Positions 860 to 52,980 of a stretch of DNA of 57,894 bases are shown piece after piece (within the stretch, counting starts at the first letter, position 1; every line of letters begins with the position of its first letter). The position numbers and the translations under genes are program-made. This DNA is from Candidatus Omnitrophota bacterium (GTDB lineage Bacteria; Omnitrophota; Gorgyraeia; VGKH01): contig VGKH01000003.1 in NCBI GenBank assembly GCA_016867135.1, forward strand, positions 1 through 57,894. The letters run 5' to 3'. The notes below the pieces were generated by a model. It saw nothing but the letters and a program-made list of their open reading frames with translations. It was not told the DNA's origin and ran no database searches.

Positions 860-870
860 TTCGCCCTCCT

Positions 871-1012
871 TTAATGAGCGCTTGACTTATGGAGCGTTAG
901 CGACATAAGTCAATTGCGCGAATTTAACCCCCACACCAATTTTCCTTACCCCAACACCATAAAATTGGTGTGGGGGTAAGTTCGTCCGCCACAGTTTTAT
1001 TGGCGGACTCAC

Positions 1013-1015
<3 letters not shown>
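871..1015. repeat. Intercistronic quasi-palindromic element, copy 1 (H1 882-913, H2 928-976, H3 985-1007)
   Basis: Module order is TTAATGAGCGC, H1, TTGCGCGAATTTAA, a 16-bp perfect H2 stem (CCCCCACACCAATTTT/AAAATTGGTGTGGGGG), TAAGTTCG, H3, CTCACTTA. It runs from the ahcY stop codon to the SD of the next gene. Confidence 0.85.
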
Positions 1016-2287
<1,272 letters not shown>

Positions 2288-2294
2288 TCACCTA

Positions 2295-2445
2295 AAAATT
2301 ACAAATCCCAAAATCAAATATTACCAATACTACCAAATAAATCCCACTTTCCAAATCCCAATATAATTTTGGGCTTGGGATTTTGGATTTATTTTGGATT
2401 TGGTAGTATTTGGATTTTGAAATTGCATTGTGTATTGTAATTTAA
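2295..2445. repeat. About 150-nt AT-rich imperfect palindrome built from GGATTT/AAATCC units
   Basis: The left arm (AAATTACAAATCCCAAAATC..TACTACCAAATAAATCC..CCAAATCCCAA) mirrors the right arm (TTGGGATTTTGGATTTATTTTGGATTTGGTAGTA..TTGTAATTT). The centre is near 2366. It fills the metK-ahcY spacer. Confidence 0.6.
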
Positions 2446-2447
2446 CA

Positions 2448-10135: not shown

Positions 10136-10138
10136 CTC

Positions 10139-10363
10139 AAATGTCCGTCATTCGATTTAAGCGAATGACGAGATCTCGCCAATCCGCCAAAAACGGATTG
10201 GGGAAAAGCACATCCCGACGTATCGTCGGGATAAGTGCGAATTTGACCCCCACTGTTTCGTTTTGGTTCGCTTTACTTCACCAAAAGCGAAACAAAACGG
10301 TGGGGGTAAGCTCGACCTTGCAACTTATGTCGCCTACGGCTCCATAAGTTGCGGTCTCACTTA
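10139..10363. repeat. Intercistronic quasi-palindromic element, copy 2 (expanded, extra hairpin modules)
   Basis: Module order is AAATG.., three small hairpins, AAGTGCGAATTTGAC, a long H2 (CCCCCACTGTTTCG../..CAAAACGGTGGGGG), TAAGCTCG, H3 (GCAACTTATGTCGC..GCTCCATAAGTTGC), CTCACTTA. The pyrH TAA stop lies inside the terminal motif. Confidence 0.85.
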
Positions 10364-12817: not shown

Positions 12818-12978
12818 TTTAATGAGCGCACAACTTATGGAGCACAAAGTGCGACATAAGTTGTTTTTTGCGCGAATTAACCCAGCTCTTTCTTTATAGT
12901 TACTATATCCTCCAAAGAAAGGGCTGGATAAAATTCCCCCCGCTTCTTGCTTTCGCAAGAAAGCAGCGGGGGTCATTT
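12818..12978. repeat. Intercistronic quasi-palindromic element, copy 3
   Basis: Module order is TTTAATGAGCGC, H1 (ACAACTTATGGAGC..GCGACATAAGTTGT), TTTTTGCGCGAATTAAC, H2 (CCAGCTCTTTCTTT/AAAGAAAGGGCTGG), ATAAAATT, a GC hairpin, TCATTT. It abuts the msbA-like TGA stop. Confidence 0.8.
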
Positions 12979-14771
12979 CACATATGGAATTGGGTATCGT
13001 AAAGCCGCTTGTATAAACCGCCCTTGGAAAGCAATTCTTCATGCGTGCCGACTTCAACAATCCTGCCCTGCTCTACCACCACGATTCTATTGGCTTTTCT
13101 TACCGTTGATAACCTGTGTGCAATACAGAAAACCGTACGGTTGGTGATTAACTTATTAATCGCCTCCTGGACCAGGCGTTCAGACTCGGAATCAAGCTGC
13201 GAAGTCGCCTCATCCAAGATAAGGATCGGCGGGTTCTTCAAGATTGCCCGGGCGATGGAAAGCCTCTGCTTCTCGCCGCCCGATAACTTAAAACCCCTAT
13301 CTCCGACTATAGTGTTATAACCCTCGGGCATTTTCATTACAAAATCATGCGCAAAAGCCTGCCTGGCGGCATTTTCAATCTGAGACTGAGGAGCTCCCGG
13401 TTTTCCATAAGCGATGTTAGCGGAAACGGTATCGTTAAATAATATCGTCTCTTGCGTTACCAATCCAACCTGCTCCCGTAAAGATTTAATCGTTGCGTCT
13501 CTTATATCAATACCATCTATAGAGACTTTACCTTTTTGAGGATCGTAAAACCGGGGTATCATATTTATTATGGATGTTTTCCCTGCGCCCGTCGGACCAA
13601 CGATAGCAATCATCTCGCCGTATTTTACCTCAAGATTGATATCCTTTAGGACATCTTGAGTATCCGATTCATATCTGAACCAAACGTTTTCAAAACGAAT
13701 ACTGGATTTTAAATTTGGCAGCGTTATAGCTCCTTCTTTATCTTCCAAGGCAGGCTTCAAATCCAGGATTTCTTCTATTCTCGCATTGGCAGCCAATGCC
13801 CGCTGGTTTAATGCATGGACCTGGCTCAATTTTTTAAAAGGCCTGATTAAAGATAACAATGAACCGAGGAACAAACCAAAGACGCCAAAGGAAAGCTTGC
13901 CGGCAATAACATCCTTGCCGCCGAGAAAGAAAACAAAGATTCCGCAAAAGGCCCCCACAAACTCCGTGATAGGATTAAGCAGCAGATTACGCTTTATAGC
14001 TTTCATCTCAAGCTTGTAGTTATCTTGGTTTTGATTGGAAAATTTATTAATTTCATAATTTTCCATGTTGAAAGCCTTGACGATTCTCACGCCCGATATA
14101 GTTTCGGAAAGCAAAGAATTGATATCTGCCATGCGCTCCTGTTGTCTCTTGGTAAGCTTGCGCAGTTTTCTGCCGATATTCACCGTCGGACCGACGACCA
14201 AAGGAAACAATATCAGCGCAAACAAAGCCATCTTCCAATGAATAATAAAAATAAGGGAAGTAAAAAGTATCAACTGAAAAGTCTGGTAGATAAGATCAGT
14301 GAACCCGTAGGAAACTGCGTTCTCAAGCGTTTTTACGTCGTTGGTTATGCGGGAGATTAATTCTCCTACGCGTTTCTGGCTGTAGAAATCTAAAGATAAT
14401 TCCTGCATTTTCTTATATAGAAGCAGGCGCGCATCTCTTATGACTCTTTGGCCTATGTCTGACATAAGATAACCCTGGAAGAAAGCAAAAATGCCCTTTA
14501 ACACAAATAAGGCCAAAACCACCCAAACCATTATGGTCAAAAGCGCAAGCGACGGCATACTATTTATTTTGTTGATGAAATCCATGACAAAACCGGGGAG
14601 TTTCGTGGCAACCACTATCTGTTTATCGGTCAATACCTTGTCTGCCAAAGGCACAATCATAGACAAGGATACCCCATCAAAAATAGCAGAGAAAAACATG
14701 CAAATTCCCGCCCAAACCAATACAGTTTTGTGCGGTTTTAAATATTTTATAAGTCTAAGGTAGTCTTTCAT
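12978..14771 (-). CDS. msbA: ABC transporter permease/ATPase, MsbA-like lipid exporter
   Basis: Six TM helices then an NBD with GPTGAGKT (Walker A), LSGGEKQR (signature) and ILILDEATS (Walker B). I placed the start at M36 (MKDYLRL.., 14771). The upstream ORF extension runs into repeat copy 4. Confidence 0.85.
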   Translation of the reverse strand: MKDYLRLIKYLKPHKTVLVWAGICMFFSAIFDGVSLSMIVPLADKVLTDKQIVVATKLPGFVMDFINKINSMPSLALLTIMVWVVLALFVLKGIFAFFQGYLMSDIGQRVIRDARLLLYKKMQELSLDFYSQKRVGELISRITNDVKTLENAVSYGFTDLIYQTFQLILFTSLIFIIHWKMALFALILFPLVVGPTVNIGRKLRKLTKRQQERMADINSLLSETISGVRIVKAFNMENYEINKFSNQNQDNYKLEMKAIKRNLLLNPITEFVGAFCGIFVFFLGGKDVIAGKLSFGVFGLFLGSLLSLIRPFKKLSQVHALNQRALAANARIEEILDLKPALEDKEGAITLPNLKSSIRFENVWFRYESDTQDVLKDINLEVKYGEMIAIVGPTGAGKTSIINMIPRFYDPQKGKVSIDGIDIRDATIKSLREQVGLVTQETILFNDTVSANIAYGKPGAPQSQIENAARQAFAHDFVMKMPEGYNTIVGDRGFKLSGGEKQRLSIARAILKNPPILILDEATSQLDSESERLVQEAINKLITNRTVFCIAHRLSTVRKANRIVVVEQGRIVEVGTHEELLSKGGLYKRLYDTQFHM

Positions 14772-14796: not shown

Positions 14797-14825
14797 TTGA
14801 CATTTGTCGAGGTATTTGTTAAAAT
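14797..14825 (+). promoter_or_regulatory. Candidate sigma70-like promoter reading into repeat copy 4 and the oxidoreductase-lpxB operon
   Basis: The + strand reads TTGACA, 17 nt, TAAAAT. Confidence 0.4.
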
Positions 14826-15011
14826 GAGCGCATCATTTACGGAGCATAAAATGCGACGTAAATGATAAGCGCTCATTTAACCCCGCCCTTTTGGCGGGGA
14901 GTAAAAAGAAATAAACTTCGCCAAAAGGGCGGGATAAGTTCGGACGAATAACTTATGTTCGTCTGAACTCCCTGCCTGACGTCAGGCAGGCATAAGTTAT
15001 GTCCTCACTTA
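14819..15011. repeat. Intercistronic quasi-palindromic element, copy 4 (at a divergent promoter region)
   Basis: Module order is AAAATGAGCGC, H1 (ATCATTTACGGAGC..GCGACGTAAATGAT), AAGCGCTCATTTAAC, H2 (CCCGCCCTTTTGGCG/CGCCAAAAGGGCGGG), ATAAGTTCG, nested H3, CTCACTTA. Confidence 0.8.
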
Positions 15012-27900: not shown

Positions 27901-30900
27901 CATTTTATATTTTCCTGTTATTTCATTGTAGTCAATACCAAAAGTTCTATAATCCCAACCGCCCTCAAATGTATTTACCAAAGCGTAGCAATAACCAGGA
28001 CCCTGCGGAGGCGTGCTTATCATCTTTATCCATAAATCTATGGTAAAATCACTACTGCCGAAATTCCAGTCAGGAGAATCCGGAATTGTCAAATATGAAT
28101 TGCTATTGCCATATTCTATTTCAGGCGGAGTAAAGTTGGATGTCCATCTGGCGATGCCTTTTGAAATTCTTATCTCATCCATCCAACCGTTATGAATAAA
28201 GTCATTATCATCCTCAAAACCGATGGTTAACGGTCCGCTGCAATCTGGGAAACTAAAAGGATTTCCGGCATCTATGCCTCTTCCCTGATGGCTCAATGTC
28301 TGCTCAACTCCATTTATGAAGAAATGATAATTTTCACTGCCGACTTCGGCATCTCTTACGACTGCAATATGATACCATGCATCAATTGAAGGCGAAAAGG
28401 CGCATCTATAATCTACCCAGTTATTACCGCCGCTATTGGCATATAAGGTTAACCCGACTCCTGGAGTCCATGTTAGATTCCAGAAAACATATCCACTTGT
28501 AATCTGGCCTATTAAACCTTTTTGAGAGGAAATGTCGTTAAACTTTACCCAAAAATCTATTGAGAAATCATCTGTGCCAAAACGCCAATCATCGCTATCT
28601 GCAACCGAAAGATAATCTCCGTTTCCATCAAACAATCCAGAAGAAGCGCCGAATTTCTTTTGGGCAGTATCCAATTGAGCATTTCCATGAACAATTACTG
28701 CCTTTCCTTTTTCGTCAATAAAGTTAGTAGAGCCGTCATTACCGTTCATATGCAAAAGAAGTTTTGTATAATCATCATCTCCGGTAAGCATAAAAAATAG
28801 ACCAGAAGCATTACCGAATTTATACTCAGATGTATCAATCTGACTGGCTCCCAGGCTGCTAACCATATGGCTTGAGCTGGAGCTATCGACAAAGCTAGTT
28901 GATCCATCATTGCCGTCGGCATGCAAAAGTAGTTTTGTCTGATAATCCGTGGCGATCGGAGAACCAGACACACTCTCAATCTGCCCACCTCTATTGTAGG
29001 AATAAAAGACTTCATCGCCATCTGGATATTGCACAGATAAAAGCCTTCCTGCGGCATCATATGTGCGCTGGACTTCGTAATTAGCGTTTTCTATCTTTTT
29101 AGTAGATTTAACTTCTCTTCCTAAATCGTCATATTCAAAATTGGTATTCGCATTAAGCTGATAATTCGCCTTGGTAAGACGGCCTTTGGAATTAGGGACT
29201 GCGACATCATCATAAGTATAATTTACCGGCAATGAACCATCGGAAAAAGATTTCTGCAGTAAACGGTTGATATTATCATAGACAAAATTAGTTACTTTAC
29301 CCTTAGCGTCAGTTTGGCTGATGAGATTTCCTGCTGCGTCATACTGATAACTCCATACCCCCATATCAGGGTCATCCATTGCGATTTTTCTGCCCAAGCT
29401 GTCATAGTCAATTGTGACGATATTGTTATGGGCATCTTTAGTCTGAACGAGATTTCCCAAAGTATCATACGAATAAAGGGTGGTAGCGTATAGCGCATAG
29501 GGACTAGCCGGATAATTCGGGCTCCTGCCATCTGCGCCGGTATATTCCTCTTTCCTGACTAATCTGCCATAAGCATCAAAATAAGATTTTTGCTTATGTC
29601 CGTTTTCGTCAATGGTAGTGGTTACCCAATCATCATATTGAACCGAAGAATATGTTCCGTCTGGACTAGTAGATTGAATAACCCTGCCCATTGCATCATA
29701 AGTAACTGTTGAATGCGGGTCTGTTGGGTCGATTGCGTCTATTGAGTCTATCGGGTTGGTAGAGAATTTAGGAAGATATTTTTTGTAAGGCAGGCCGCGG
29801 GAATCATATTCTGTCTGGCCGGAGACAATGAATTTATTTGGCTCTTCGGATTCGGTTTTCGTTTGGACTAATCTTCCTAAGCCGTCATAAAAAGACACAG
29901 AATCCAAGGTCCCCTCTTGATCCGAAATTTCTCTTTGATGTGAAATTATCTTAATGGGAACTGAATCAAGATGATATTCTGCCTGTGAAGTAGGATATTC
30001 AACAGAATCTTCCGGAGAAATCTGTTTCTCTACCCTCCCAAAAGTATCATATATAGTAAATCCTGCATGGTTATTCGGATCAGTTGTGGATTTAAGCTGC
30101 CCCCAAAGGCCGCGATATGCTCCATCGTCTAAAGCTACACCATTTACGCCGTAATATTCATTTATTACCTGATGGCCGAGAGCATTGGTAGCTGTCAGCG
30201 AGAAAATATGATAATCCATATCATAAATAACGCTAGATGAACGGCCCAGCGCGTCAGTAGTAGTAAGTAAATGCCCATAAACATCATAGGTAAATGTTGC
30301 AAATGGATTTGTCCCGCCATTAAACCAATCTTCCTGCTTGGTTAGAAGTCCCTTGGTTGGCGGCTCAGTTAACCCGGAATGACCATCATAATAAAACCAA
30401 GTCTGCTTGAGAATATTGCTATCCGAAGAATCTTTAAGATAGGTATTTTTCGGTAAACCAACTAACCAATCTATGTCATTATAGACATATTCAGTATAGC
30501 CATAGCGCTCATCTCCTGTCTGACTGACATCGCCTAATTCAGAAACTTTGGTGGGATTGCCATAAGCATCGTATTGATATTCTGTAGCTGTATGTTTATA
30601 AGAAGGATCGCCGTTATAGAGATAACTATCAGCTCGGTTTAAATAAACAAACTTTGAGCCGTTGCCTAAATCCTGAGATTGCCAGTCGCTGGTGGATTTA
30701 GTATAAAGATTGCCTGAAGCATCAAAACTACGGCCTTCCTTGACTCTTCCTTTATAAATATCGTCCTGCAAAAATTCTGTTTCGGAGTAATTGCCTTGCG
30801 CATCAGATACCTTAACGAACCCAAATCCGCGAAATTCACGGTCTTCAAAATCAAATAGGCCATCTCTGTATTCGTAATTGGTGGTATAGCTTTGGCCAGA

Positions 30901-35403: not shown

Positions 35404-37242
35404 CTAAAAAGTCAGTTTTATCCCTCCCAACAAACCAAAGCCCGGGGTGGAAAAATCAAACTGCTCTTGGTATCTGCGGTTAAAAATATTGGTAACTCTC
35501 AGCAGGATATCCAGGTTTTGGGAGAAATGAAAAGTAGCATCTCCGTCCATCACAAAATACGGGGCAAGCGCGATGGTGTTATCGACATTGGCATAGCGCT
35601 TAGTTTTGTAGCGGCCGTATAAACCAAAATCCCATTTTTTATTCGGTGAGAATGCAAGCTTGCATTTATAAAGGCCTTTTGGCCGGTAAGTTAAGCGCAA
35701 ATCTGTATCTTCATTTCTTGCATCTAAAAATGTATAATTGAAATTCAGTTTTAGATTATCCTTTAGGACCCATTCGGCTTCCAGTTCAACTCCTTTAGTC
35801 AAGGCTTTGCCGACATTGTCCGGCCTCCACCAAAAAGAATTATCCATGGTCCATTCGATTAAATCATTGTATTTGGTGATAAAATAAGTCAAATCGGTCT
35901 TAACGGATTGAAAAACATATGTCCCCATGCCCAGTTCGTAAGATATGGCCTTCTCGGGAGTAAGTGTGGGATTGCCCTCCACCCCTCCCCAAATGCCCCA
36001 GTCTTCCCTGGGCCAATAAAGGTCATTAAATGTCGGGGTCCTGAATGACTGGGCAATCATCCCGTGAAACTTAAAGGTATCAAAAAGCCATGTGGCTGCG
36101 CTTACGCTCGGGCTAAACTCATCACCGAAAGTAGAATAATCATCCCAGCGGCCTCCGAACTTAATAATCAGATTATCATCGAGAAAAGCGGTTTCGCTTT
36201 CCAGATACAACGCCTTTAAGTTGTAATCATGCTTGGCGCTAGTTGAACTATTCAATTTATGTATCTGATAATTCGCACCGAATGTGGTGCGCCAGATATC
36301 AAACCATAGCTGGGAAAACTGGGCGTCGGCTCCATAGACTTTGGTGGCATGGTCGTCTTGGTCGCGCGGGTCAAAGGCCTCGATAAATTTCAGCTTATCG
36401 ACATTGTGGTATAACTTTAAGAGAATATCCTGGTCAGCCAGGAATTTGCCGTCCCATGTCAGGTCTATAAACCTTTTATCGCTCACGGTGCGGTCGTCCA
36501 AATCCGGATTAGAAACCCTGTCGGGACTACCCACGTTAGCCAAATGAAAACCGCTTGATAAAGAAATGTAATTATTATTATCGATTTGATAACCAACTTT
36601 GGCATTGGCATTATGGTCTCGATAATAGGCGTTATCCCGGTGCCCTTGAGAATTTAAATAATTGTATGATGCTAGGTAATCAAGATTTTTGATTTTATAG
36701 CTATTAACAAAAGACTCAGAATTCGTCCCAAAAGAGCCGCCTTTTGAGGTTAGCTCGGTTTTCATTTTGTCTTGTCCTTTTTTGGTAATGATATTGATAA
36801 CTCCTCCCACGGCATTAGCTCCGTACATGTTTGCAGCCGGGCCGCGCATAACTTCTATTCGCTCAATATTGGAAAGCGATATCTGATTAAAATCGGTCAG
36901 GCCGTCGCGCGGGGTGTTTACGGGCCTGCCGTCAATAAGGGTAAGGACCTGATTATTAGATGCCCCCCTTGTGTGCACGGATTTGACCGACCCCAAAGAA
37001 CCCTGCTCCAGCATATCCACTGAAGGCAACATATCCAAAAGCTCGGAAACCTCAAGCGCGTTAGAAGACTCAATCTCATCAGAAGAAATAATGCTGATAT
37101 TGGCAGGGACATTGCGGTAGGTCTGCTCTATTTTGGAGGCGCTAACAACAATTTTATCTAAGTCTAATTCGTAAGCAGATGCTGAATCAAGCAGGACGAA
37201 ACAAAAAATTACAAAGACCAAGGCAAAAACTAATCTTTTCAT
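35404..37242 (-). CDS. btuB: TonB-dependent outer-membrane receptor, BtuB-like
   Basis: Signal peptide, TonB box-like DKIVVSAS, a plug domain, a beta-barrel and a terminal aromatic residue (..GGIKLTF). It is preceded by a cobalamin riboswitch. I placed the start at 37242 (AAGGAGG upstream). Confidence 0.85.
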   Translation of the reverse strand: MKRLVFALVFVIFCFVLLDSASAYELDLDKIVVSASKIEQTYRNVPANISIISSDEIESSNALEVSELLDMLPSVDMLEQGSLGSVKSVHTRGASNNQVLTLIDGRPVNTPRDGLTDFNQISLSNIERIEVMRGPAANMYGANAVGGVINIITKKGQDKMKTELTSKGGSFGTNSESFVNSYKIKNLDYLASYNYLNSQGHRDNAYYRDHNANAKVGYQIDNNNYISLSSGFHLANVGSPDRVSNPDLDDRTVSDKRFIDLTWDGKFLADQDILLKLYHNVDKLKFIEAFDPRDQDDHATKVYGADAQFSQLWFDIWRTTFGANYQIHKLNSSTSAKHDYNLKALYLESETAFLDDNLIIKFGGRWDDYSTFGDEFSPSVSAATWLFDTFKFHGMIAQSFRTPTFNDLYWPREDWGIWGGVEGNPTLTPEKAISYELGMGTYVFQSVKTDLTYFITKYNDLIEWTMDNSFWWRPDNVGKALTKGVELEAEWVLKDNLKLNFNYTFLDARNEDTDLRLTYRPKGLYKCKLAFSPNKKWDFGLYGRYKTKRYANVDNTIALAPYFVMDGDATFHFSQNLDILLRVTNIFNRRYQEQFDFSTPGFGLLGGIKLTF

Positions 37243-37263
37243 AATTATCCTCCTTAAAAACAA

Positions 37264-37292
37264 AGCCCCTCCGACGTTACGTCGGAGGGGCT
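37264..37292 (-). terminator. Riboswitch expression-platform terminator
   Basis: Stem AGCCCCTCCGACG/CGTCGGAGGGGCT, followed on the minus strand by TTGTTTTT just before the SD. Confidence 0.6.
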
Positions 37293-37371
37293 GCACCCTA
37301 ATTTTCTTAATCCCCTAATTTATGCGCTCTGATACTGTATCCTTACGCAGTATTCAAAACTCTAATATATA

Positions 37372-37560
37372 GGCAGGTCTTCTGGCTTCCTTTGCCCTTT
37401 TAACGCCTTCCCACCCCATTAAATCAGGGCAGTGGCATAATGTTAAAAGGGTTCCCTTTCTCAAAAAACAAAAAAGGGCGGGGTTACAGCGGCGGGACCG
37501 CGTCTGCTTTGCTACTTCGCTTCGCTCAGTATCCTTCGCAACATTCTGAGCAAAATCGAA
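37372..37560 (-). promoter_or_regulatory. Cobalamin (B12) riboswitch aptamer
   Basis: The minus strand contains GCCACTGCCC..GGGTGGGAAGG and the B12 box AGCCAGAAGACCTGCC, plus an upstream CCGCCGCTGTAACCCCG element. The order matches the btuB leader class. Confidence 0.75.
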
Positions 37561-37602
37561 GGACAGACTTCCCTGTTTGGCTTATCGCGCACCTATATAA
37601 GA

Positions 37603-38109
37603 CTAATTAGTTAAAAGAGCAGTTGCAAAACGAGTATTCTTTACCCTTCTTGCAATTAATTCGTATGCACCGAACATCACAGCCGAATAAACAACTGTGG
37701 ATAATAGCGTGGCTCTGAAAAACGGTATCCCCATAATAAAACAATCTGCCAGGCCTTTTGAAGTATACGGATACCAACCGGAAATCCAAACACCGAAATT
37801 AGTAACCACGAAGAATAAAACTGCGGAAACTAAAGAAGAACCGGCTATATTCAAAACAGATTTATTTTTCTTCTGGGTTATCCCAAGAATGGAAATCAAG
37901 ACTACGCTTCCCCAGGTAAAAAGCATGGTATTGTGCAGGCCTAAGAATATATCGCTTAAAACCATCAACAATAAAGGCACTAAAACCGCGTATTTTCTAC
38001 TCAGATAATAACCGCCGAATAACGCGATAGCGATGACCGGGTTGAAATTCGGCGCATGCGGTATGAATCTAGTTAATATTCCTAAAACTATCAATGCTAT
38101 AGCTAACAT
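37603..38109 (-). CDS. Polytopic membrane protein (DUF6580-like; possible vitamin/corrinoid uptake component)
   Basis: N-terminal R.IPHAPNFNPV.AIALFGG motif and 5-6 TM helices. It lies between cobO and the riboswitch-btuB unit. Confidence 0.5.
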   Translation of the reverse strand: MLAIALIVLGILTRFIPHAPNFNPVIAIALFGGYYLSRKYAVLVPLLLMVLSDIFLGLHNTMLFTWGSVVLISILGITQKKNKSVLNIAGSSLVSAVLFFVVTNFGVWISGWYPYTSKGLADCFIMGIPFFRATLLSTVVYSAVMFGAYELIARRVKNTRFATALLTN

Positions 38110-38121
38110 ATAAATCCTCCC

Positions 38122-38279
38122 TTAAATGAGCACATAACTTACGGAGCGATAGCGAACGTAAGTTATCAGTGCGAATTTACCCCCACACCAATTTTCTTGC
38201 CCCCCCCCGCACCATAGAATTGGTGTGGGGGTCAGTTCCGATAAACCCTTGACAAGCTTGTCAAGGGTATCGTCACTGA
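38122..38279. repeat. Intercistronic quasi-palindromic element, copy 5
   Basis: H1 is identical to copy 6 (ATAACTTACGGAGCGATAGCGAACGTAAGTTAT) and the H2 stem is identical to copy 1. H3 is the perfect palindrome CCCTTGACAAGCTTGTCAAGGG. Confidence 0.85.
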
Positions 38280-38308
38280 TTTTATTAGAATTGCAGCCTA
38301 TTGTCAAG

Positions 38309-38812
38309 TTAAAACTCTATTCCGCGTCGGCCGGTTATTTTTTTCTTGAAAGGATGCTTGACCTCTTTCATCTCGGTGACATAATCCGCGCATTCTTTCA
38401 ATTCTTTGGGCGCATATCTTCCGGTCAATACTAGCTCAATACAATCCGGGCACATCTTAACAACATCCAAGACCTCTCTAAGCCCTAGGACATTCAATTT
38501 GATTGCGATGTTTGCTTCATCCAAAATAACCACTTGGAATCTTCCGGATTGAATTACCCCCTTGATCCTGGCCAATCCTTTTTTTGCCAGCATAATATCT
38601 TTTGGGCTCGGGGATTTTTTGACAAAACACCTTGTACCTAGTTGTTCAACTTTTATATTCTTTATTTTCTTTAACGACTTTAATTCACTGTAATCTTTGC
38701 CCTTAAGAAACTGCCCGATAAAGACACTGAAGCCTGCGCCTGCGGCTCTTAGGGCCAAACCCAAGCTAGCTGTAGTCTTTCCTTTTCCTTCTCCGGTATA
38801 GATATGAATCAT
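38309..38812 (-). CDS. cobO: Cob(I)yrinic acid a,c-diamide / cob(I)alamin adenosyltransferase
   Basis: Contains IYTGEGKGKTTASLGLALRA and ILDE..A motifs. 167 aa. Confidence 0.88.
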   Translation of the reverse strand: MIHIYTGEGKGKTTASLGLALRAAGAGFSVFIGQFLKGKDYSELKSLKKIKNIKVEQLGTRCFVKKSPSPKDIMLAKKGLARIKGVIQSGRFQVVILDEANIAIKLNVLGLREVLDVVKMCPDCIELVLTGRYAPKELKECADYVTEMKEVKHPFKKKITGRRGIEF

Positions 38813-42793: not shown

Positions 42794-43015
42794 TTTAATG
42801 AGCACATAACTTACGGAGCGATAGCGAACGTAAGTTATAAGTGCGAAGTAAATCCAGCACTAATTTTACTACAAGACTCGAGAAAACAATAGCAGTTTTA
42901 TTCAAATAAATCCGTAGTATTCACAACCCAACGTTGTCAGTAAAATTAGTGCTGGGTCAAATTCAGACACTCAACTTAGCTTCACTATCGTTCGCTAAGT
43001 TGTGTATTCATTTGA
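42794..43015. repeat. Intercistronic quasi-palindromic element, copy 6
   Basis: 17-bp H2 stem CCAGCACTAATTTTACT/AGTAAAATTAGTGCTGG with a loop of about 72 nt. The right arm overlaps the last 10 codons and the stop of lipB. Confidence 0.85.
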
Positions 43016-43737
43016 CCTTCTACTATTTCTAAAGCAAAAACTTTCTTAAATTCTTCCACCAATCTTTCTTTTAATCGATTATCTATAACAATCTCTCTGC
43101 CCATAATCTGAGAAAGCGAAGTCATCCGAACGTCTAACCCGCATGGTTTGATCAAAGAAAAATATTCTAAATCGGTATTTAGGTTTATGGCTAAGCCGTG
43201 AAAAGTAATCCATTTCTTCACGGCGATACCGATAGAAGCGATTTTTCTATCTTCTATCCAGACACCAGTATATCCAGGTTTTCTTTCTGCTTCAAGATTA
43301 AAATTATTTAAGAAATTAATTATTACTTCTTCCAAAGACCAAAGAAAAAACTTTAGGTCTTTTTTGAGTTTATTTAAATCAAAAACCGGATAGGCGACTA
43401 ACTGTCCCGGGCCGTGATAGGTAATCCTTCCGCCTCTTTCGACCGAATAATTTGAAACGCCCAACTGCTTAAGCTTTAGCGGCGAGATAAGCAAATCGCT
43501 TTCCTTGGTCATTCTTCCTTGGGTAATTGTGTGCGGATGCTCGCAGAGAATTAAGGCGTGAGGCTCGTTCCCATATCTAATTTTGTCCAAAACTTGCTTT
43601 TGAAACTCGTAAGCATAAGAATAATCAACCAAGCCCAGATCGACTATCCGACATAAATTATTCTCCTTCGCCTTTCCACTTGTATCCAATGGTATAGGCT
43701 TCGGAGAATATTCTACGAAGCATTTACCATTATTCAT
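42985..43737 (-). CDS. lipB: Octanoyltransferase (lipoate-protein ligase B)
   Basis: Contains RGG..TYHGPGQLV and K..S.G motifs. I placed the start at ATG 43737 (ATGAATAA overlap with the lpdA stop). The ORF track begins at 43821. Confidence 0.85.
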   Translation of the reverse strand: MNNGKCFVEYSPKPIPLDTSGKAKENNLCRIVDLGLVDYSYAYEFQKQVLDKIRYGNEPHALILCEHPHTITQGRMTKESDLLISPLKLKQLGVSNYSVERGGRITYHGPGQLVAYPVFDLNKLKKDLKFFLWSLEEVIINFLNNFNLEAERKPGYTGVWIEDRKIASIGIAVKKWITFHGLAINLNTDLEYFSLIKPCGLDVRMTSLSQIMGREIVIDNRLKERLVEEFKKVFALEIVEGQMNTQLSER

Positions 43738-45052
43738 ATTCCTTGTGCGAAGTAGAATAGATACTTTTTGTCGCCTCTCTAATAGCTTCGGATAAGGTAG
43801 GGTGTGCAAAGATTGTGTCATTAATTTGAGAAATTTTTAACTTTGATTTTATGGCTAAAGAAAAAACTGCGATAAGCTCTGTTGCCTTCGGACCGACTAT
43901 CGCCGCTCCCAGAATTTCTTTAGAATTACCGTCAAATAGGACCTTTATAAATCCGTCTGTTTCATCCAAAATATGCGCCATTCCTGAAGCCAAGAAATCA
44001 AACTTACCAATCTGGTATTGGATACCTTTGGCGCCTGCCGCCTCTTCCGTCAATCCTACGCTTGAAATCTCCGGATCGGTAAAAATACAATTTGGGACTG
44101 CGGAATAATCTACCGGGATTTTCTTTCCGGAGATATTCTCGACCGCTAATTCTCCCTCGTAAGCTGCGACATGTGCCAACTGATGGCCGCCGATACAATC
44201 GCCTACCGCATAGAGATTGTCAATGTTAGTCTGCATGAATTCATTTACCAGAATTCCCTTTTTATCTGTCTTTACTCCGATCTTTTCCAATCCTTCAATT
44301 TCCTTGTTGGCAACTCTTCCCACGCAAACCAAGACCTTTTCAAACTTATCCAGAGCGACTGTCTTGACATCGGTCTTGGTTAAAATCTTTACACTCTTTC
44401 TCTTTAATGCCACTTCCAATTTCTTTGCAATATCCTTATCTTCGTTAGGTAAAATATGTTCCAGTATCTCAACTATTGTTACCTTGGCGCTAAGAGAAGC
44501 AAAAATATTGGCGAATTCGCAACCGATGACACCGCCTCCGACTATGAGAAGGCTTTCAGGAATAAATTTTAGATCTAAAATATCATCGCTAGAAATAATA
44601 TTCTTTTGATTGAATTTCAAAAACGGCAGCTCAATTGGCCTTGAACCGATAGCGATAATAACATTCTTTGCTTTTATGCTTCGCGAATCGACCAGAATCT
44701 CATCGGCATTAACGAATTTAGCCTCGCCCTTAATCAATTCAACGCCTTTGGTGGATAACTGGAATTCCATGCCTTTGGCCATCTTATCGACTATCGCCGA
44801 TTTGCGCTGCTGGATTTTATCGAAATTTACTTCGGCGCCTTTTACTTCTACCCCAAAAACAGAATTATCTTTGATATGCGAAAAAATGCGGGAAGATTGT
44901 ACTAATACCTTGGTGGGTATACATCCTTGATTAAGGCAAGTGCCGCCTATTTTTTTCTGTTCCACCAAACAGACAGAAAGCCCAAGCTGCTTAGCCTTGA
45001 TTGCCGCGCTGAAACCTGCCCATCCAGCTCCGATTATACAGATATCGTGCAT
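43730..45052 (-). CDS. lpdA: Dihydrolipoyl dehydrogenase
   Basis: Contains GAGWAG, the redox-active GGTCLNQGCIPTK, and a C-terminal HPTLSE. Confidence 0.92.
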   Translation of the reverse strand: MHDICIIGAGWAGFSAAIKAKQLGLSVCLVEQKKIGGTCLNQGCIPTKVLVQSSRIFSHIKDNSVFGVEVKGAEVNFDKIQQRKSAIVDKMAKGMEFQLSTKGVELIKGEAKFVNADEILVDSRSIKAKNVIIAIGSRPIELPFLKFNQKNIISSDDILDLKFIPESLLIVGGGVIGCEFANIFASLSAKVTIVEILEHILPNEDKDIAKKLEVALKRKSVKILTKTDVKTVALDKFEKVLVCVGRVANKEIEGLEKIGVKTDKKGILVNEFMQTNIDNLYAVGDCIGGHQLAHVAAYEGELAVENISGKKIPVDYSAVPNCIFTDPEISSVGLTEEAAGAKGIQYQIGKFDFLASGMAHILDETDGFIKVLFDGNSKEILGAAIVGPKATELIAVFSLAIKSKLKISQINDTIFAHPTLSEAIREATKSIYSTSHKEYE

Positions 45053-45951: not shown

Positions 45952-47012
45952 ATTGCCTCCGCCATTTGTTTTGTGCCTACTGCGGTGGGATCGTTCCTGT
46001 CTTGCTTCAAATCGTAAGTAACCGATTTTCCTTCTTTTAAAACTTCCTTTACCGCGTTTTCTAATCTATCTGCAGCTTTGGTTTCGCCGATGTGTCTTAG
46101 CATTAATACGGCAGATAAGATCATCGCTGTGGGATTGACTTTATTTTGGCCGGTATATTTCGGGGCTGAACCATGCACGGCTTCAAAAAGCGCGATTTGG
46201 TCTCCGATATTAGCTCCGGGTGCGATGCCTAAACCACCGACTAAGCCAGCGCAGAGATCCGAGATTATATCGCCGTAAAGATTAGGCAGGACCAATACAT
46301 CAAAATTCTTTGGCTTCTGGACTAACTGCATAGCCATATTATCCACTATCGCTTCTTCAAACTGAATGTCGCTATATTTCTTGGCAACTTCCCTTGCGGT
46401 TCTTAAGAATAAACCGTCAGAAAACTTCATAATGTTCGCTTTATGGATTGCGGTGACTTTTTTGCGGTTATTCTTCCTGGCATACTCAAAGGCGAATCTG
46501 ACAATACGTTCTGAGGCAAAACTTGAAATGGGTTTTATGGAAATCGCCGAGTCTTCTCTTATTTCTCTTTTTGAGAGAGCCTCAATCTTTTTAATCAACT
46601 CTTTAGTTTCGGGCTTTTTGTCTTCAAATTCTATTCCGGCGTATAAATCCTCTGTGTTCTCCCTGACGACAACAAGATCCAAACCTTTAAATAAGGATTT
46701 GGTGCCCTCGTATGATTTAGCCGGCCTTAAGCAGGCATACAAATCCAAGGCCTGCCTCATTTGCACGTTAACCGAACGAAATCCTCCGGCAATAGGAGTT
46801 ACGATCGGCCCCTTGATTGCGACTTTATTCTTCTTGATTAAAGCTAATGTCTCATCGGGAAGCGGCTTGCCGAACTTCTTTATCGCGTCCTCGCCAGCGA
46901 TAGCCTCTTGCCAATCAATTTTTACTCCCGTCGCATCAACACAAACCTTAGCTGCTTCGGAAACCTCATAACCTATGCCATCCCCGGGAATGAAAGTAAT
47001 CTTATAGCTCAT
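45933..47012 (-). CDS. Isocitrate / homoisocitrate (beta-decarboxylating) dehydrogenase
   Basis: Contains PGDGIG, GFRSVNV.MRQALDLYACLRP and NLYGDI.SD motifs. Confidence 0.8.
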   Translation of the reverse strand: MSYKITFIPGDGIGYEVSEAAKVCVDATGVKIDWQEAIAGEDAIKKFGKPLPDETLALIKKNKVAIKGPIVTPIAGGFRSVNVQMRQALDLYACLRPAKSYEGTKSLFKGLDLVVVRENTEDLYAGIEFEDKKPETKELIKKIEALSKREIREDSAISIKPISSFASERIVRFAFEYARKNNRKKVTAIHKANIMKFSDGLFLRTAREVAKKYSDIQFEEAIVDNMAMQLVQKPKNFDVLVLPNLYGDIISDLCAGLVGGLGIAPGANIGDQIALFEAVHGSAPKYTGQNKVNPTAMILSAVLMLRHIGETKAADRLENAVKEVLKEGKSVTYDLKQDRNDPTAVGTKQMAEAICRKLR

Positions 47013-47509
47013 ATCTTTAACCCACCATATTTTTTGACATGCGCTACGACTCCTCCGTCGGCAAGCAGATTCATCATAATCTTAGAAAGCGCAGCTGTTT
47101 TTAATATCTTCTTTCTGGTTAAATTAGTTATTTGGCCCTTAGCCAAGTCTATTTCAAGATTGTCCTGTTCTTTTATACTGTCTGTATTAGTCTCAATCAA
47201 AGGCAGCCCGATATTAAAGCTGTTTCGATAAAATATGCGGGCAAAGCTTTTGGCTACCACCGCAATAATTCCAGCCTGTTTTATTACCAAAGGCGCCTGT
47301 TCTCGGGATGAACCCATGCCAAAGTTTTCACCCGCTACAAGAATGGACTTACCCGGCTTTAATCTTTTGTAGAAATTTGGCTCAATATCTTCCATTAAAT
47401 GTTTGGCCAATTCATTCATGTTGGTGACGGCAAATTTATACCTACCAGATATAATCCAATCCGTATTTATATTATCAGGGAACTTGTAGGCAAAACCTTG
47501 AAGCTTCAT
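47009..47509 (-). CDS. Aconitase-family dehydratase small subunit (LeuD/HacB-like)
   Basis: 166 aa. It has a swivel-domain [11 protein letters not shown] motif. Confidence 0.8.
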
Positions 47510-47510
47510 T

Positions 47511-48557
47511 TTATAAGTGCTTAAATTCTTCCGGGTTCTTTAACTTGCTTTTTGCCGCTTCAAAGCTGATGATTCCGGCTTGATACAATTCTTTCAAAGA
47601 TTTATCCATTGTCTTCATGCCGTATTGACTGCCAGTTTGAATCATGGTAGGAATCTGTTCAATCTCTTGCTCACGGATTAAATTTCTTATTCCAGGCGTA
47701 GCGATAAGCACTTCGGTCGACAAAACTCTTCCCTGTCCGCTCATTCGGGGCAAAAGAAGCTGCGAAACTATACCTTGCAAGCAGTCGGAAAGCTGTAATT
47801 TTACCTGCTGTTGCTGGTATGGCGGGAATACATCGATGATTCTTTCTATTGTCTGAGGAGCATCCGGAGTATGTAATGTCGCTAAAACCAAATGACCAGT
47901 CTCGGCAGCAGTCAAAGTCGTGGAAATAGTCTCCAAATCACGCATTTCTCCTACGACGATTACATCGGGATCCTGCCTTAAGCAATGCCTGAGCGCTTCT
48001 GCAAAAGAATTGGTATCAGCGTGCACTTCCCTCTGCTTGATAATACTTTTTTTGTTTACGTGCACAAACTCAATAGGATCCTCAATACAGATAATTAAAT
48101 CTTCGCGTTCATTATTAATAAGCTCAAGCATCGCTGCCAAAGTAGTGGTCTTGCCCACTCCTGTAGGACCGGTAACTAAAACTAATCCGTTGGGTTTGCG
48201 CGCCAAATCAACGCAAACTTTTGGCAAGCCCAATTCTTCAACGGTAGGAACAAAATTCGGTATTCTTCTAAACGCTGCCTCTATTGAACCTCTTTGAATA
48301 TGCACGTTTACCCTGAATCTATCCATACCGGGAAGTGCCAAAGACATATCAAGCTCTTTATCCCTCTCAAACATTTCTTTCTGGATATCCGTCATCATGC
48401 TATATATAAGACGCTTTGTATCCTCTCTTTGGAGAGGCGAAAACTTTGTCAACATTAATTTCCCATCTACTCTTAATATCGGAGGGGTATTCTCGGTTAA
48501 ATGCAAGTCTGAAGCCTTCTTCTCGATAGTCAACATAAGCAGATCTTTTAATTCCAT
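47511..48557 (-). CDS. pilT: Type IV pilus retraction ATPase PilT
   Basis: Contains ASDLHL, GPTGVGKTT, IEDPIEF and AHLVLATLHT-like blocks. I placed the start at 48557 (AAAGGAGG upstream). Confidence 0.9.
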   Translation of the reverse strand: MELKDLLMLTIEKKASDLHLTENTPPILRVDGKLMLTKFSPLQREDTKRLIYSMMTDIQKEMFERDKELDMSLALPGMDRFRVNVHIQRGSIEAAFRRIPNFVPTVEELGLPKVCVDLARKPNGLVLVTGPTGVGKTTTLAAMLELINNEREDLIICIEDPIEFVHVNKKSIIKQREVHADTNSFAEALRHCLRQDPDVIVVGEMRDLETISTTLTAAETGHLVLATLHTPDAPQTIERIIDVFPPYQQQQVKLQLSDCLQGIVSQLLLPRMSGQGRVLSTEVLIATPGIRNLIREQEIEQIPTMIQTGSQYGMKTMDKSLKELYQAGIISFEAAKSKLKNPEEFKHL

Positions 48558-48567
48558 TAAAACCTCC

Positions 48568-48750
48568 TTTAATGAGCACATAACTTACGAACATGAAATG
48601 TGAGTAAGTTATAAGTGCGAATTAAATCCTTGACAATTTTTGAAATAACAGTCGCTTTCGCAAATAACCCTTGACCAAAAATTGTCAAGGATCAAATTCA
48701 GCCATCAAACTTACGTTCACTAACGTTCCGTAAGTTTGGGCTTCATTTGA
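48568..48750. repeat. Intercistronic quasi-palindromic element, copy 7
   Basis: Module order is TTTAATGAGCAC, H1, AAGTGCGAATTAAAT, H2 (CCTTGACAATTTTT/AAAAATTGTCAAGG), TCAAATTCAG, H3 (CAAACTTACG..CGTAAGTTTG). The right arm overlaps the 3' end of the leuC-like gene. Confidence 0.85.
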
Positions 48751-49997
48751 TATTTTCTAGGATCAGTTATCTTACCCTCTATTGCAGAGGCGGCTACAGT
48801 AGCTGGTGATGCCAAATAAATAAATGCCGATGGATTTCCCATCCTACCTTTAAAATTCCTGTTTGCCGTAGAAATAACTACTTCTCCGTCGGCAGGTACT
48901 CCATGATGCGTGCCCACGCAGGGACCGCAACCCGGATTGACCACTACCGCGCCTGCCTGAACAAAATCCTGAATATAGCCTTTTTTCATCGCTTCAAGAA
49001 AAATCCTGGAAGAGGCTGGCGCAACAACCAGCTTGGTTCCTTTATTGACAGTTTTGCCTTTCAATATGCCAGAGGCAATTTTTAAATCTTCTAATCTGCC
49101 ATTGGTGCAGGTTCCGACATATGCCTGATCAATAGATTTCCCCTTTACTTCATTTATAGAAGCAACATTATCTACCGAATGAGGCTTGGCAACCTGAGGA
49201 GTCAATTTTGAGATATCAAAAGCCAGTGTCTTTTGATAAACCGCGGAATTATCCGCATTTACCGGAGAATATTTTCTAGTAACATTATGGTCCTTTAGCC
49301 ATTTATTGGTTTTGGAATCAACACTAAAAAAAGCGCATTTCGCGCCCATCTCAATAACCATGTTACTTATGGTAAAACGTCCGTCCATGCTTAAATTATC
49401 AATTGCCTGGCCATAAAACTCAATTGACTTATAGGTGCAGCCGTTGGCGCCTAATTTCCCAATAATAAATAGAATTATATCTTTTGCAAAAACGCCTTTA
49501 GGGGCTTTGCCCGTTACTTTAATCTTAAAAGTCTGAGGGACTCTAAACCAGTTTTTTCCCGTAGATAAACTTATGGCCAAATCCGTGGAACCCATACCCG
49601 TGGCAAAGGCATTTAAAGCTCCGTAAGTACAGGTATGCGAATCCGCACCTACGATTAAATCTCCCGGCAGCACTCTTCCCGACTCCGGGATTACCTGATG
49701 ACATACCCCGCAACCTATGTCAAAAAGATCCACATTTCTTTCTTGGGCGAATTTACGCATCTTATCGTGGACCTTTGAGACTCCCATTGATGGGCTGGGC
49801 GCGCTATGGTCGATGACCATACAAAAATTCCTATTTTTTATTTTCTTTGCTCCTAATTCTTTGATTCTATCTATTATGATGCTGCTTGTCCCGTCCTGTC
49901 CGAAACAGAAATCTATATCGCATATCGCATAATCTCCGGCGCTAACGTCTTTGCCGGAATGCTTACTTAATATCTTCTCAACTATTGTTTTAGCCAT
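48720..49997 (-). CDS. Aconitase-family dehydratase large subunit (LeuC/HacA-like)
   Basis: 425 aa. Fe-S ligand regions ..ADSHTC.., ..GTCTNGR.. and ..PGCGPC.. are present. Confidence 0.85.
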   Translation of the reverse strand: MAKTIVEKILSKHSGKDVSAGDYAICDIDFCFGQDGTSSIIIDRIKELGAKKIKNRNFCMVIDHSAPSPSMGVSKVHDKMRKFAQERNVDLFDIGCGVCHQVIPESGRVLPGDLIVGADSHTCTYGALNAFATGMGSTDLAISLSTGKNWFRVPQTFKIKVTGKAPKGVFAKDIILFIIGKLGANGCTYKSIEFYGQAIDNLSMDGRFTISNMVIEMGAKCAFFSVDSKTNKWLKDHNVTRKYSPVNADNSAVYQKTLAFDISKLTPQVAKPHSVDNVASINEVKGKSIDQAYVGTCTNGRLEDLKIASGILKGKTVNKGTKLVVAPASSRIFLEAMKKGYIQDFVQAGAVVVNPGCGPCVGTHHGVPADGEVVISTANRNFKGRMGNPSAFIYLASPATVAASAIEGKITDPRKYQMKPKLTER

Positions 49998-52736: not shown

Positions 52737-52980
52737 CAAATGAGCAGACAATTTACGGGATGAAATGACGTAAATTGTAGTCCGCCATTGTTTCATTGGC
52801 GGGCGTCTGCGAATTTGACCCCCCACCACTTTTAGTAATGGGGCGTCTTTTTACATAAAATGTTTATCTTTCTTCCAATCCCACATCTTTAATTCCACCG
52901 CTGTTTCTAAAAGTGGTGGGGGGTAAGTTCGGACAAATAACTTATGTCGCTTTCGCTTCCATAAGTTATGTCCTCACTTA
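52737..52980. repeat. Intercistronic quasi-palindromic element, copy 8 (between rpsD and rpoA)
   Basis: Module order is CAAATGAGCAG, H1, an extra TCCGCCA..TGGCGG hairpin, CTGCGAATTTGAC, H2 (CCCCCCACCACTTTT/AAAAGTGGTGGGGGG, loop about 78 nt), TAAGTTCG, H3, CTCACTTA. The terminal motif contains the rpsD TAA stop. Confidence 0.85.

Follow-up and report, generated by a model that had tools for sequence, protein, structure and literature searches.

Shared C-terminal tails of LeuC and LipB

The window analysed here is a stretch of 57,894 nucleotides (contig VGKH01000003.1, Candidatus Omnitrophota bacterium) in which a non-coding palindromic repeat, referred to below as the element, occurs in several copies between genes. 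One copy overlaps the 3' end of a leuC-like gene at positions 48720..48749 of the minus strand, which read CAA ATG AAG CCC AAA CTT ACG GAA CGT TAG. The encoded protein, a large subunit of the aconitase family with 425 residues, ends in ..DPRKY-QMKPKLTER*. The lipB gene ends in a similar way at 42985..43014 of the minus strand (CAA ATG AAT ACA CAA CTT AGC GAA CGA TAG), yielding a protein that ends in ..EG-QMNTQLSER*. Each stretch corresponds to the outermost 30 nt of an arm hairpin, and both hairpins belong to one repeat family. We located copies of the element by repeat finding and with a covariance model built from 48 arms of both types; this model matched the arms at 48688-48749 (E ~1e-13) and 42953-43014 (E ~1e-11), and both tails align base for base with its positions 1-30. 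The predicted fold places the TAG of the leuC-like gene in the apical loop of the arm hairpin. A sequence-only reading had proposed that the repeat donates the stop codon and a shared tail to unrelated enzymes, and its account of these two gene ends was accurate: both lie in homologous ends of the repeat.

The tails were then compared with those of related proteins. We retrieved the 120 best homologues of the LeuC-like protein (Omnitrophota-type LeuC of ~415-424 aa) and inspected the C-termini of 60 of them. All 60 end in ..DPRKY[LF] or at most about five residues later, and none carries a QM.. tail; the closest homologue (P0001, 97% identical, 417 aa) ends in ..DPRKYL. A sister genome, represented by the contigs L001/L002 and L126/L127, was found by protein look-up and is syntenic with the window at ~93% DNA identity. 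Its LeuC ends in ..KYL*, 18 nt ahead of pilT, and its LipB in ..FALEIIKGGL*, with the stop codon overlapping the ATG of gcvH. A native LipB end was observed in three relatives including the sister genome, and a more distant relative ends in ..FSIEIMEV*. Relative to the empty alleles, leuC changed from ..TAT CTT TAG.. to ..TAT CAA ATG.., losing its last Leu codon and the TAG, and lipB changed from ..GGT CTA TAA.. to ..GGT CAA ATG.., losing its last Leu codon and the TAA, such that the end of LipB passed from ..IIKGGL* to ..IVEGQMNTQLSER*. Both junctions have the dinucleotide TC in common with the terminus of the element. Comparison with orthologues, as the sequence-only reading had suggested, shows that the two tails are lineage-specific, and they are new C-termini encoded by the element.

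The resemblance between the tails can be traced to the type of arm involved. In both copies, the arm facing the upstream gene is of the type usually found at the downstream end (T3), the lipB copy being typed t3/t3, and its terminus is TCAAATGA, a variant that the rpsD and pyrH copies normally have at their downstream end. In the register of the arm model, the CAA of this terminus (48747-48749 in the leuC-like gene) occupies the slot of the canonical terminal TAA. The frame therefore stays open for nine codons (QMKPKLTER in LeuC, QMNTQLSER in LipB) and closes at the TAG in the arm loop. The two tails match because they represent the same reading frame of homologous arm DNA, and their differences (KPK vs NTQ, T vs S) correspond to substitutions in the stem. 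The tail is indeed common to both enzymes, but we regard it as an incidental by-product of the CAA-variant terminus rather than a functional module transferred between proteins.

AhcY had been put forward as a further example. The protein does end in WQMGT* and its TAA stop (1013-1015) does lie inside ATAAGTGAG, but all 120 listed orthologues end in SW[EQDNH][MILAVS]GT (70 of them in SWEMGT and 12 in SWQMGT). The "QM" of AhcY is thus ancestral, its likeness to the LeuC and LipB tails is coincidental, and the overlap with the element is limited to the stop codon. The stops of pyrH (10361-10363) and rpsD (52978-52980) are, as claimed, the TAA of TAAGTGAG / ..ATAAGTGAG.. at the end of the element. 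RpsD (..YSK*), PyrH (..GTVVR*) and a 632-aa ABC protein (..QFHM*) end like their relatives and have native lengths. One could suppose from these genes that the LeuC and LipB tails are likewise ancestral or coincidental and that the element merely lies downstream of native stops. Given the tail-less LeuC orthologues, the sister LeuC and LipB ends and the base-for-base match to the arm model, this is exceedingly improbable, and the sequence comparisons refute it for both proteins.

Architecture of the element and its copies in the window

The window contains eight composite copies of the element, all in one absolute orientation; its genes lie nearly all on the minus strand (46 of the 51 long open reading frames, ORFs). 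Repeat motifs of 19 and 18 nt were observed 3-4 times when 0.01-0.04 matches were expected, far more often than chance would allow. Read in gene orientation, a copy consists of TAA, GTGAG, an arm hairpin, GAACTTA, a central hairpin, TYAAATTCG, an inverted second arm, GCTCAT(T) and TAA. Each arm hairpin is composed of an outer helix P1 (GGAC/GTCC), an inner helix P2 (ATAACTTAT/ATAAGTTAT) and a loop GGAGC..GCGAC, while the central hairpin is clamped by CCCCC...GGGGG and has a variable, at times long, loop. The outer ends read TAAGTGAG... on one side and ...CTCATTTAA on the other. One covariance model matches both ends of every copy on opposite strands, and the element therefore has terminal inverted repeats, with two arm hairpins inverted around a central hairpin as in the unit layout of REPINs (paired repetitive extragenic palindromic, REP, sequences). 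Folding predicts either three side-by-side hairpins or a four-way junction. Copies measure about 145-235 bp in the window and 133-284 bp among the 79 non-redundant copies described below. The element has no coding capacity: the canonical terminus TAAGTGA itself closes two of the frames, and the third runs into a stop within about 20 codons, such that all three sense frames are closed within about 20 codons of the upstream terminus.

The flagged copy (copy 7, 48569..48749, minus strand) separates leuC from a pilT-like gene, with arms at 48688-48749(-) and 48569-48630(+). In gene orientation it reads (T)CAAATGAAG.., arm, centre, arm, ..GTGCTCAT-TAA, followed by AGGAGG-N5-ATG of the pilT-like gene; its predicted RNA fold has a free energy of -70.2 kcal/mol (z -8.9). 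Copy 6 (42795..43014, minus) lies between lipB and gcvH, belongs to the same subfamily and has two arms of T3 type (42795-42856(+) and 42953-43014(-)). The copy between rpsD and rpoA (copy 8, 52746..52980, minus) provides the rpsD stop as its terminal TAA, and its T3 end CTCATTTGA adjoins GGAGG. It is predicted to fold into three consecutive hairpins (-93.2 kcal/mol, z -7.7) with the UAA engaged in pairing at the upstream arm's foot. Copy 2, between pyrH and frr (10138..10363, minus), also ends the upstream gene on its terminal TAA and has extra hairpins on its downstream side. The same holds for the stop of ahcY in copy 1 (871..1015, minus), which precedes a DUF4139-like gene and whose upstream arm presents a different hairpin module (GTCCGCC..GGCGGAC).

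Copy 3 (12819..12980, minus), between an ABC-transporter gene and the rpsB promoter region, has a truncated upstream arm, and the TGA at which the ABC gene stops (12978-12980) is a hybrid of a native T and the GA of ..GAAATGA. Copy 4 (14821..15011, minus) occupies a divergent intergenic region, where its upstream terminus adjoins the start of a plus-strand oxidoreductase-like gene (ATG at 14999 or 15014). The upstream stop of copy 5 (38123..38279, minus) lies at 38309-38311, about 20-30 nt before the element, and so is not donated by it; the downstream end of this copy adjoins GGGAGG-N7-ATG. A near-consensus sigma-70-like site, TTGACA-17-TAAAAT (11/12), is found at 38279-38307 on the minus strand, between this stop and the upstream end of copy 5.

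The element looks modular. Arms exchange hairpin modules, e.g., GTCCGCC..GGCGGAC or ATCCCGACG..CGTCGGGAT, and the GC-clamped central stem falls into a few discrete types that recur across unrelated samples (CCCCCACACCAATT.., CCCCCCACCACTTTT.. and CCCCGCCC..) with loops of ~10 to ~100 nt (e.g., window positions 925-980, 38178-38235 and 52810-52925, and L051, L054, L061 and L067).

Several known classes of functional sequence were considered. No Rfam family matched the element, whether the whole window was searched at the gathering score or one copy at E<=1: the window matches were only three tRNAs and a cobalamin riboswitch, and the best single-copy match was a noise-level miRNA (E 0.18). Terminator-like sites are absent from the window copies and promoter-like sites are not enriched in them. 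We rejected a terminator or promoter function, since the copies contain no terminator-like site and one strong promoter-like site lies just upstream of copy 5 and outside it. Integron attC sites, CRISPR and tRNA-like sequences were also rejected: the flanking genes belong to core operons, there are no arrays and ARAGORN identified only the three real tRNAs.

Filled and empty sites in related genomes

The sister genome lacks the element at rpsD/rpoA, leuC/pilT, lipB/gcvH, ahcY/next gene and ABC/rpsB, and the outgroup contigs L122, L124 and L129 are likewise empty at sites of window copies. By copy, empty sites were found in L126, L127 and L128 for ahcY, in L129 for pyrH/frr (..AAGTAGGTGGTGG..), in L126 and L129 for ABC/rpsB (reading CATATGTAATTTTAATAAAA), in L001, L122 and L123 for lipB/gcvH, and in L001, L122 and L124 for both leuC/pilT and rpsD/rpoA. 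Because the sister genome and the outgroups are empty there, these insertions of the window are derived. The sister genome has copies of its own at ilvN/ilvC and pyrH/frr. Its pyrH/frr copy (L126) differs throughout from that of the window and provides a TGA stop rather than TAA (the empty site has TAG), which implies independent insertion or replacement at a hot spot. In the clean pairs of empty and filled sites (ilvN/ilvC, pyrH/frr and ABC/rpsB), one stop-like trinucleotide in the empty allele corresponds to two in the filled allele. Taken at the level of sequence, these comparisons point to recent activity of the element in this lineage.

The same junctions presented further peculiarities. 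In L123, whose LeuC is 76% identical, AT-rich inserts of 240-270 bp are located at rpsD/rpoA and leuC/pilT (L123:7018-7256 and L123:11258-11524), and the arm model gives no match in them. These two junctions seem either to tolerate inserts of several kinds or to act as hot spots for them. The 16-nt rpsD/rpoA spacers of two element-free relatives, possible footprints of earlier insertions, resemble tandem duplications of the stop-proximal sequence (AAATAATTTAG/AAATAATGTTTAG and AAATAATTTTTCG/ATAATTTTTAG; L001:7244-7262 and L122:1289-1310), and L124 has a single short version, AAATAATCTTTAG. We also considered that filled junctions were imported from a distant strain, which might account for the spacer losses described below. 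Such import is unlikely for rpsD/rpoA, whose flanks are 94-96% identical to L001, like the background.

Distribution and placement relative to stop and start codons

We searched for the element outside of the window using several strategies. Scanning species-representative genomes for the 16-mer TGCGAATTTRACCCCC yielded 119 matches, most of them chance matches in unrelated phyla and ~10 in Omnitrophota; the architecture of the element was found in at least seven metagenome-assembled genomes (MAGs) of Omnitrophota. A two-part pattern scan of metagenome contigs returned at least 118 loci, about 100 of which are true copies. We conducted a census of these loci with profile hidden Markov models (nhmmer) and counted 120 paired elements, 115 of which combine one upstream-type (T5) and one downstream-type (T3) arm. 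The element therefore has polarity. Placement was tabulated for 79 non-redundant, well-delimited copies from metagenomes and MAGs; an earlier pattern-derived set comprised 74 copies.

The upstream flank of the 79 copies is TAA in 73, TGA in four and TTA in two. On the downstream side, TAA was found in 49 and was shifted by one base, as GCTCAT-TAA-A, in 15 more. A long upstream ORF on the same strand is present for 72 copies and missing for seven. These 72 ORFs stop on the terminal TAA in 49 cases, on a TGA four bases into the element in six, deeper inside it (+1..+56) in six and upstream of it in 11. If the 61 ORFs that terminate within the element entered it in random frame, about 20/20/20 would be expected instead of the 49/6/6 observed (chi-square about 61 by our own arithmetic); TAA is the stop codon of just 22 of the 51 long ORFs in the window. 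These numbers bear out the proposal that the element preferentially integrates at or over stop codons. Integration at TAA stops is the general rule. The companion proposal, that insertion replaces native C-termini and stops, holds for LeuC, LipB and a minority elsewhere (the six TGA and six deeper cases), but not for RpsD, PyrH, AhcY or the ABC protein, which are unchanged.

The downstream end is placed with similar precision. An ATG lies 0-4 nt past the downstream TAA in 50 of the 79 copies (d = +1 in 33 and -1 in 10) and a Shine-Dalgarno (SD) motif lies between TAA and ATG, mostly straight after the TAA, in 19, such that the SD or ATG of the next gene directly follows the downstream TAA in 69 of 79; ten downstream genes have neither. 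Gene tables show that native junctions in these genomes commonly read TAAnATG or TAATG. The observed layout is exactly what results when the element inserts at the TAA stop of such a tight junction and a TAA is left on each side. In the earlier set of 74 copies, 48 are flanked by co-directional genes (45 in sense and three in antisense orientation), five lie between convergent genes and one between divergent genes. We found no direct repeats beyond the TAAs in the table of these 74 copies that would indicate longer target duplications. In the locus L245 (minus strand, ~170-3400), on a single metagenome contig, several element termini are found between consecutive genes of ribosomal proteins (L5, S8, L6, L18 and S5), which shows that a single highly expressed operon can carry multiple copies.

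Pairing in the arms

The pairing of the arms is highly constrained. The arm helix comprises 17 pairs that are 98.1% paired, and double changes were observed at 12 pairs. We counted 148 double-change cells vs 42 in shuffles, and none of 500 shuffles reached the observed paired percentage, double-change counts or covariation score. Mismatches were counted in 109 upstream and 109 downstream arms: the non-Watson-Crick cells, G·T vs A·C, number 16 vs 16 in upstream arms and 10 vs 6 in downstream arms. There is hence no wobble (G·U) excess over A·C on the sense strand in either type of arm. Selection on the sense-strand RNA should tolerate G·U and not A·C, and the absence of such an excess fits a palindrome maintained in DNA. 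The pattern of substitutions therefore points to a DNA-level constraint, whose candidate causes would include recognition of single-stranded DNA (ssDNA) hairpins, a protein binding inverted repeats or template-switch correction of quasi-palindromes.

Nature of the element

[quoted passage not shown] Such an element would land at a TAA and leave a TAA on each side, the left one serving as the stop codon of the upstream gene and the right one standing immediately before the SD or start codon of the next gene. Nearly all surviving copies separate two genes within a tightly packed operon and share the direction of these genes; copies elsewhere were probably purged by selection. Owing to the quick closure of all frames, insertions would seldom harm the upstream protein. 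The element is probably mobilized in trans by a transposase. A DDE enzyme of the IS5/PIF-Harbinger type that duplicates TAA seems to us slightly more likely than an HUH-type enzyme that is strand-specific and acts on ssDNA, but no partner element was found in about 1 Mb of related loci and the family of the transposase is therefore a guess. Tourist-like MITEs and the IS5/PIF-Harbinger transposon superfamily have terminal inverted repeats flanked by 3-bp duplications of TAA/TTA type, prefer AT-rich targets and include short, non-autonomous derivatives with high copy numbers. The present element differs from them in that we identified no transposase of the IS5 family with matching ends in about 1 Mb of loci centred on short copies, and in that a symmetric TWA target would yield TTA as often as TAA, whereas the TAA:TTA ratio is 73:2.

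Several observations weigh against this MITE-like interpretation. The two flanks do not always agree, since several copies combine a downstream TGA with an upstream TAA, and the flanking trinucleotides could be part of the element; where TAA is found on both sides, as in most copies, insertion behind a pre-existing TAA is formally indistinguishable from duplication of TAA. The orientation bias (45 sense vs 3 antisense, 73 TAA vs 2 TTA) is not explained by a symmetric DDE reaction unless selection is added. Both the polarity toward TAA rather than TTA and the sense bias call for selection or for a mechanism that is itself asymmetric. In ~1 Mb of related loci, we found no element that carries a transposase between the same termini, and unpaired arms yielded no transposase candidate either; the sample was centred on short copies, which makes this negative a weak one. 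In three of seven comparisons (rpsD/rpoA, leuC/pilT and ahcY/next gene), the filled alleles lack the native spacer between stop and SD, with 16, 6 and 5-6 nt missing relative to relatives, respectively, which simple insertion with a 3-bp duplication does not predict. At these sites, the downstream TAA or TGA always adjoins the SD, and the empty sites have TAA/TAG directly before SD purines; one conjecture is that the element inserted at this TAA/TAG and that a deletion then extended back to the stop. Finally, where a TAA target would be expected, the lipB junction shows an additional AGG or a duplication resembling an SD. As candidates for an autonomous partner, we examined pairs of termini 0.45-4 kb apart, but these enclose ordinary genes (ribosomal proteins, NusG-like and others) and were rejected.

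A different mode of mobilization would account for the polarity more directly. A strand-specific HUH-type enzyme (as in REPIN/RAYT systems or the TnpA of IS200/IS605) could recognize the arm hairpins in ssDNA and insert the element 3' of TAA without duplication. This possibility, which we consider a minority option, is consistent with arms that each form a conserved hairpin kept by Watson-Crick-only compensatory changes, with two inverted hairpin units placed around a spacer hairpin as in REPINs, with the strict polarity relative to an asymmetric motif (upstream TAA 73 vs TTA 2) and with the single absolute orientation of 8/8 window copies, the divergent intergenic copy included. It would also explain why the downstream TAA/TGA need not equal the upstream flank, as expected from a target motif on one side and an element-borne end on the other. 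In contrast, the arms, which look roughly 75% alike by eye when aligned, make up long terminal inverted repeats such as are absent in IS200/IS605, and there is no conserved 5' tetranucleotide resembling GTAG. We observed no Y1 transposase or RAYT gene flanked by arms in a sample that was not designed to find one, and orientation relative to replication is not separable from orientation relative to genes.

Alternatively, the element could be a functional intercistronic RNA module whose position between stop and start is selected and not merely tolerated, its fold either joining the two codons to maintain translational coupling or being excised to leave a near-leaderless cistron. In favor of such a role, the terminal TAA is the stop codon of 49 of 72 upstream ORFs, and in most of the 50 direct-start cases 0-1 nt separate the downstream TAA from the start codon; 36 of these 50 also have no SD-like motif just upstream of the element. 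The co-orientation with genes (45 to 3), the very stable predicted folds (z -8.9 and -7.7) with the UAA paired at the foot of an arm, the absence of terminator-like sites within copies and the presence of copies within ribosomal-protein operons are all compatible with it. REP hairpins located at most 15 nt from a stop codon are described as affecting translation in E. coli (Liang et al. 2015, as cited in PMC12306157). Yet neither arm type shows an excess of G·U over A·C on the sense strand, copies are present or absent between 93%-identical genomes with no sign that junctions need them, and sister genomes have markedly different copies at the same junction. Other copies lie away from genes, in antisense contexts or in a divergent promoter region. 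These genomes also have tight TAAnATG junctions of their own, so that targeting of TAA is enough to account for the exact placement. We consider an RNA module quite unlikely. A further scenario, in our judgment unlikely as well, combines these ideas: the element would be an operon insert that homes to stop codons and is transparent to translation, strand-polar machinery (possibly acting on ssDNA hairpins) providing sense placement at TAA and the three-hairpin fold joining stop and start. If so, termination-reinitiation coupling or near-leaderless processing would still work across an insert of 150-250 nt.

Comparison with known repeats

We classify the repeat as a new family within a known class of elements, notable for its coincidence with stop codons, its polarity and its three-hairpin build; our literature search returned nothing on repeats of this kind in Omnitrophota. 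Overlaps between MITEs and the 3' ends of genes, C-terminal extensions encoded by MITEs and in-frame fusions are documented (PMC5896051, PMC2229807; general reviews in PMC3184786 and PMC10969869), and fusions of MITE reading frames to genes have been reviewed for ERIC, YPAL, Correia and RPE (PMC2229807). QMITE1 and QMITE2 of Coxiella burnetii offer a precedent in this respect: they are small non-coding palindromic repeats with terminal inverted and direct repeats and highly stable RNA folds, many copies share 1-50 bp with the 3' end of a functional gene, and one supplies the C-terminal 33 residues of EnhC with a stop just downstream of the element (PMC5896051). They differ by their unrelated sequences and phylum, by direct repeats of 7-9 bp that are variable and not TAA, and by the lack of any reported strong preference for stop codons or gene orientation (PMC5896051).

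Other families share some of these properties. The Correia/NEMIS elements of Neisseria and the enterobacterial ERIC/YPAL are also MITEs of 100-200 bp that are co-transcribed, form long hairpins, have a short TA-containing duplication, are fused to host ORFs in some cases and present filled and empty sites between relatives (PMC2229807, PMC3184786). They consist of a single long stem-loop with a TA target, and Correia, which RNase III cleaves, contains IHF and promoter motifs, whereas the Omnitrophota family has three hairpins, TAA on both sides and a terminal TAA that serves as the stop in about two thirds of cases. REP/BIME/REPIN sequences and their RAYT enzymes offer another parallel, with inverted pairs of extragenic hairpins just after stops in operons and compensatory changes (PMC2817692, PMC3184786, PMC12306157). 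REP units are about 20-40 nt long, GC-rich, linked to RAYT and have a conserved 5' tetranucleotide; the Omnitrophota arms, in contrast, are about 60 nt long and AT-rich with a GGAGC..GCGAC loop and clear outer termini flanked by TAA. Unlike palindrome elements derived from IS200/IS605, which have subterminal hairpins without terminal inverted repeats, whole arms are inverted repeats of each other. [quoted passage not shown] Chunjie differs by its 9-bp direct repeats, its 21-bp terminal inverted repeats and its unrelated sequence, and no specificity for stop codons is reported for it.

Omnitrophota are a little-studied phylum whose genomes are compact, and the repeat family found here is very abundant in them and was previously undescribed. 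The family constitutes a natural system to study how a selfish element colonizes essential operons, those of ribosomal proteins included, without breaking them, and how downstream genes remain translated with hairpins of 150-250 nt between them and the stop to which they were coupled. Its presence or absence between 93%-identical genomes makes it a useful strain marker. For annotation, the QM..ER tails of LeuC and LipB and a nine-residue tail of Lpd described below should be treated as by-products of insertion and not as conserved motifs.

Other features of the window

An insertion unrelated to the main family was found at the lpd/lipB junction (43660-43758, minus). It is a palindrome of 97 bp flanked by TA, with terminal inverted repeats TATTCTACTTCGC / GCGAAGGAGAATA and a predicted fold of -33.7 kcal/mol. 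It lies on the TAA stop of the dihydrolipoyl dehydrogenase gene, adds nine residues to Lpd (..KSI-YSTSHKEYE*) and introduces a GAAGGAG in front of the lipB region. L001 lacks this insertion, and no second copy was found in ~1 Mb of related loci.

The gene downstream of the flagged copy, which encodes an ATPase of PilT/T2SSE type (47511-48557, minus), is wedged between leuC (48720-49997) and leuD (47009-47509), and the order leuC, pilT-like, leuD, leuB is kept in all relatives examined. The cobalamin riboswitch (37355-37611, minus; 72.7 bits) lies upstream of an ORF of 630 aa (35404-37296). Finally, a giant ORF of 2745 aa (24901-33138, minus) contains internal repeats spaced ~519 nt apart (e.g., 27604-27690 vs 28123-28209, 79% identical).

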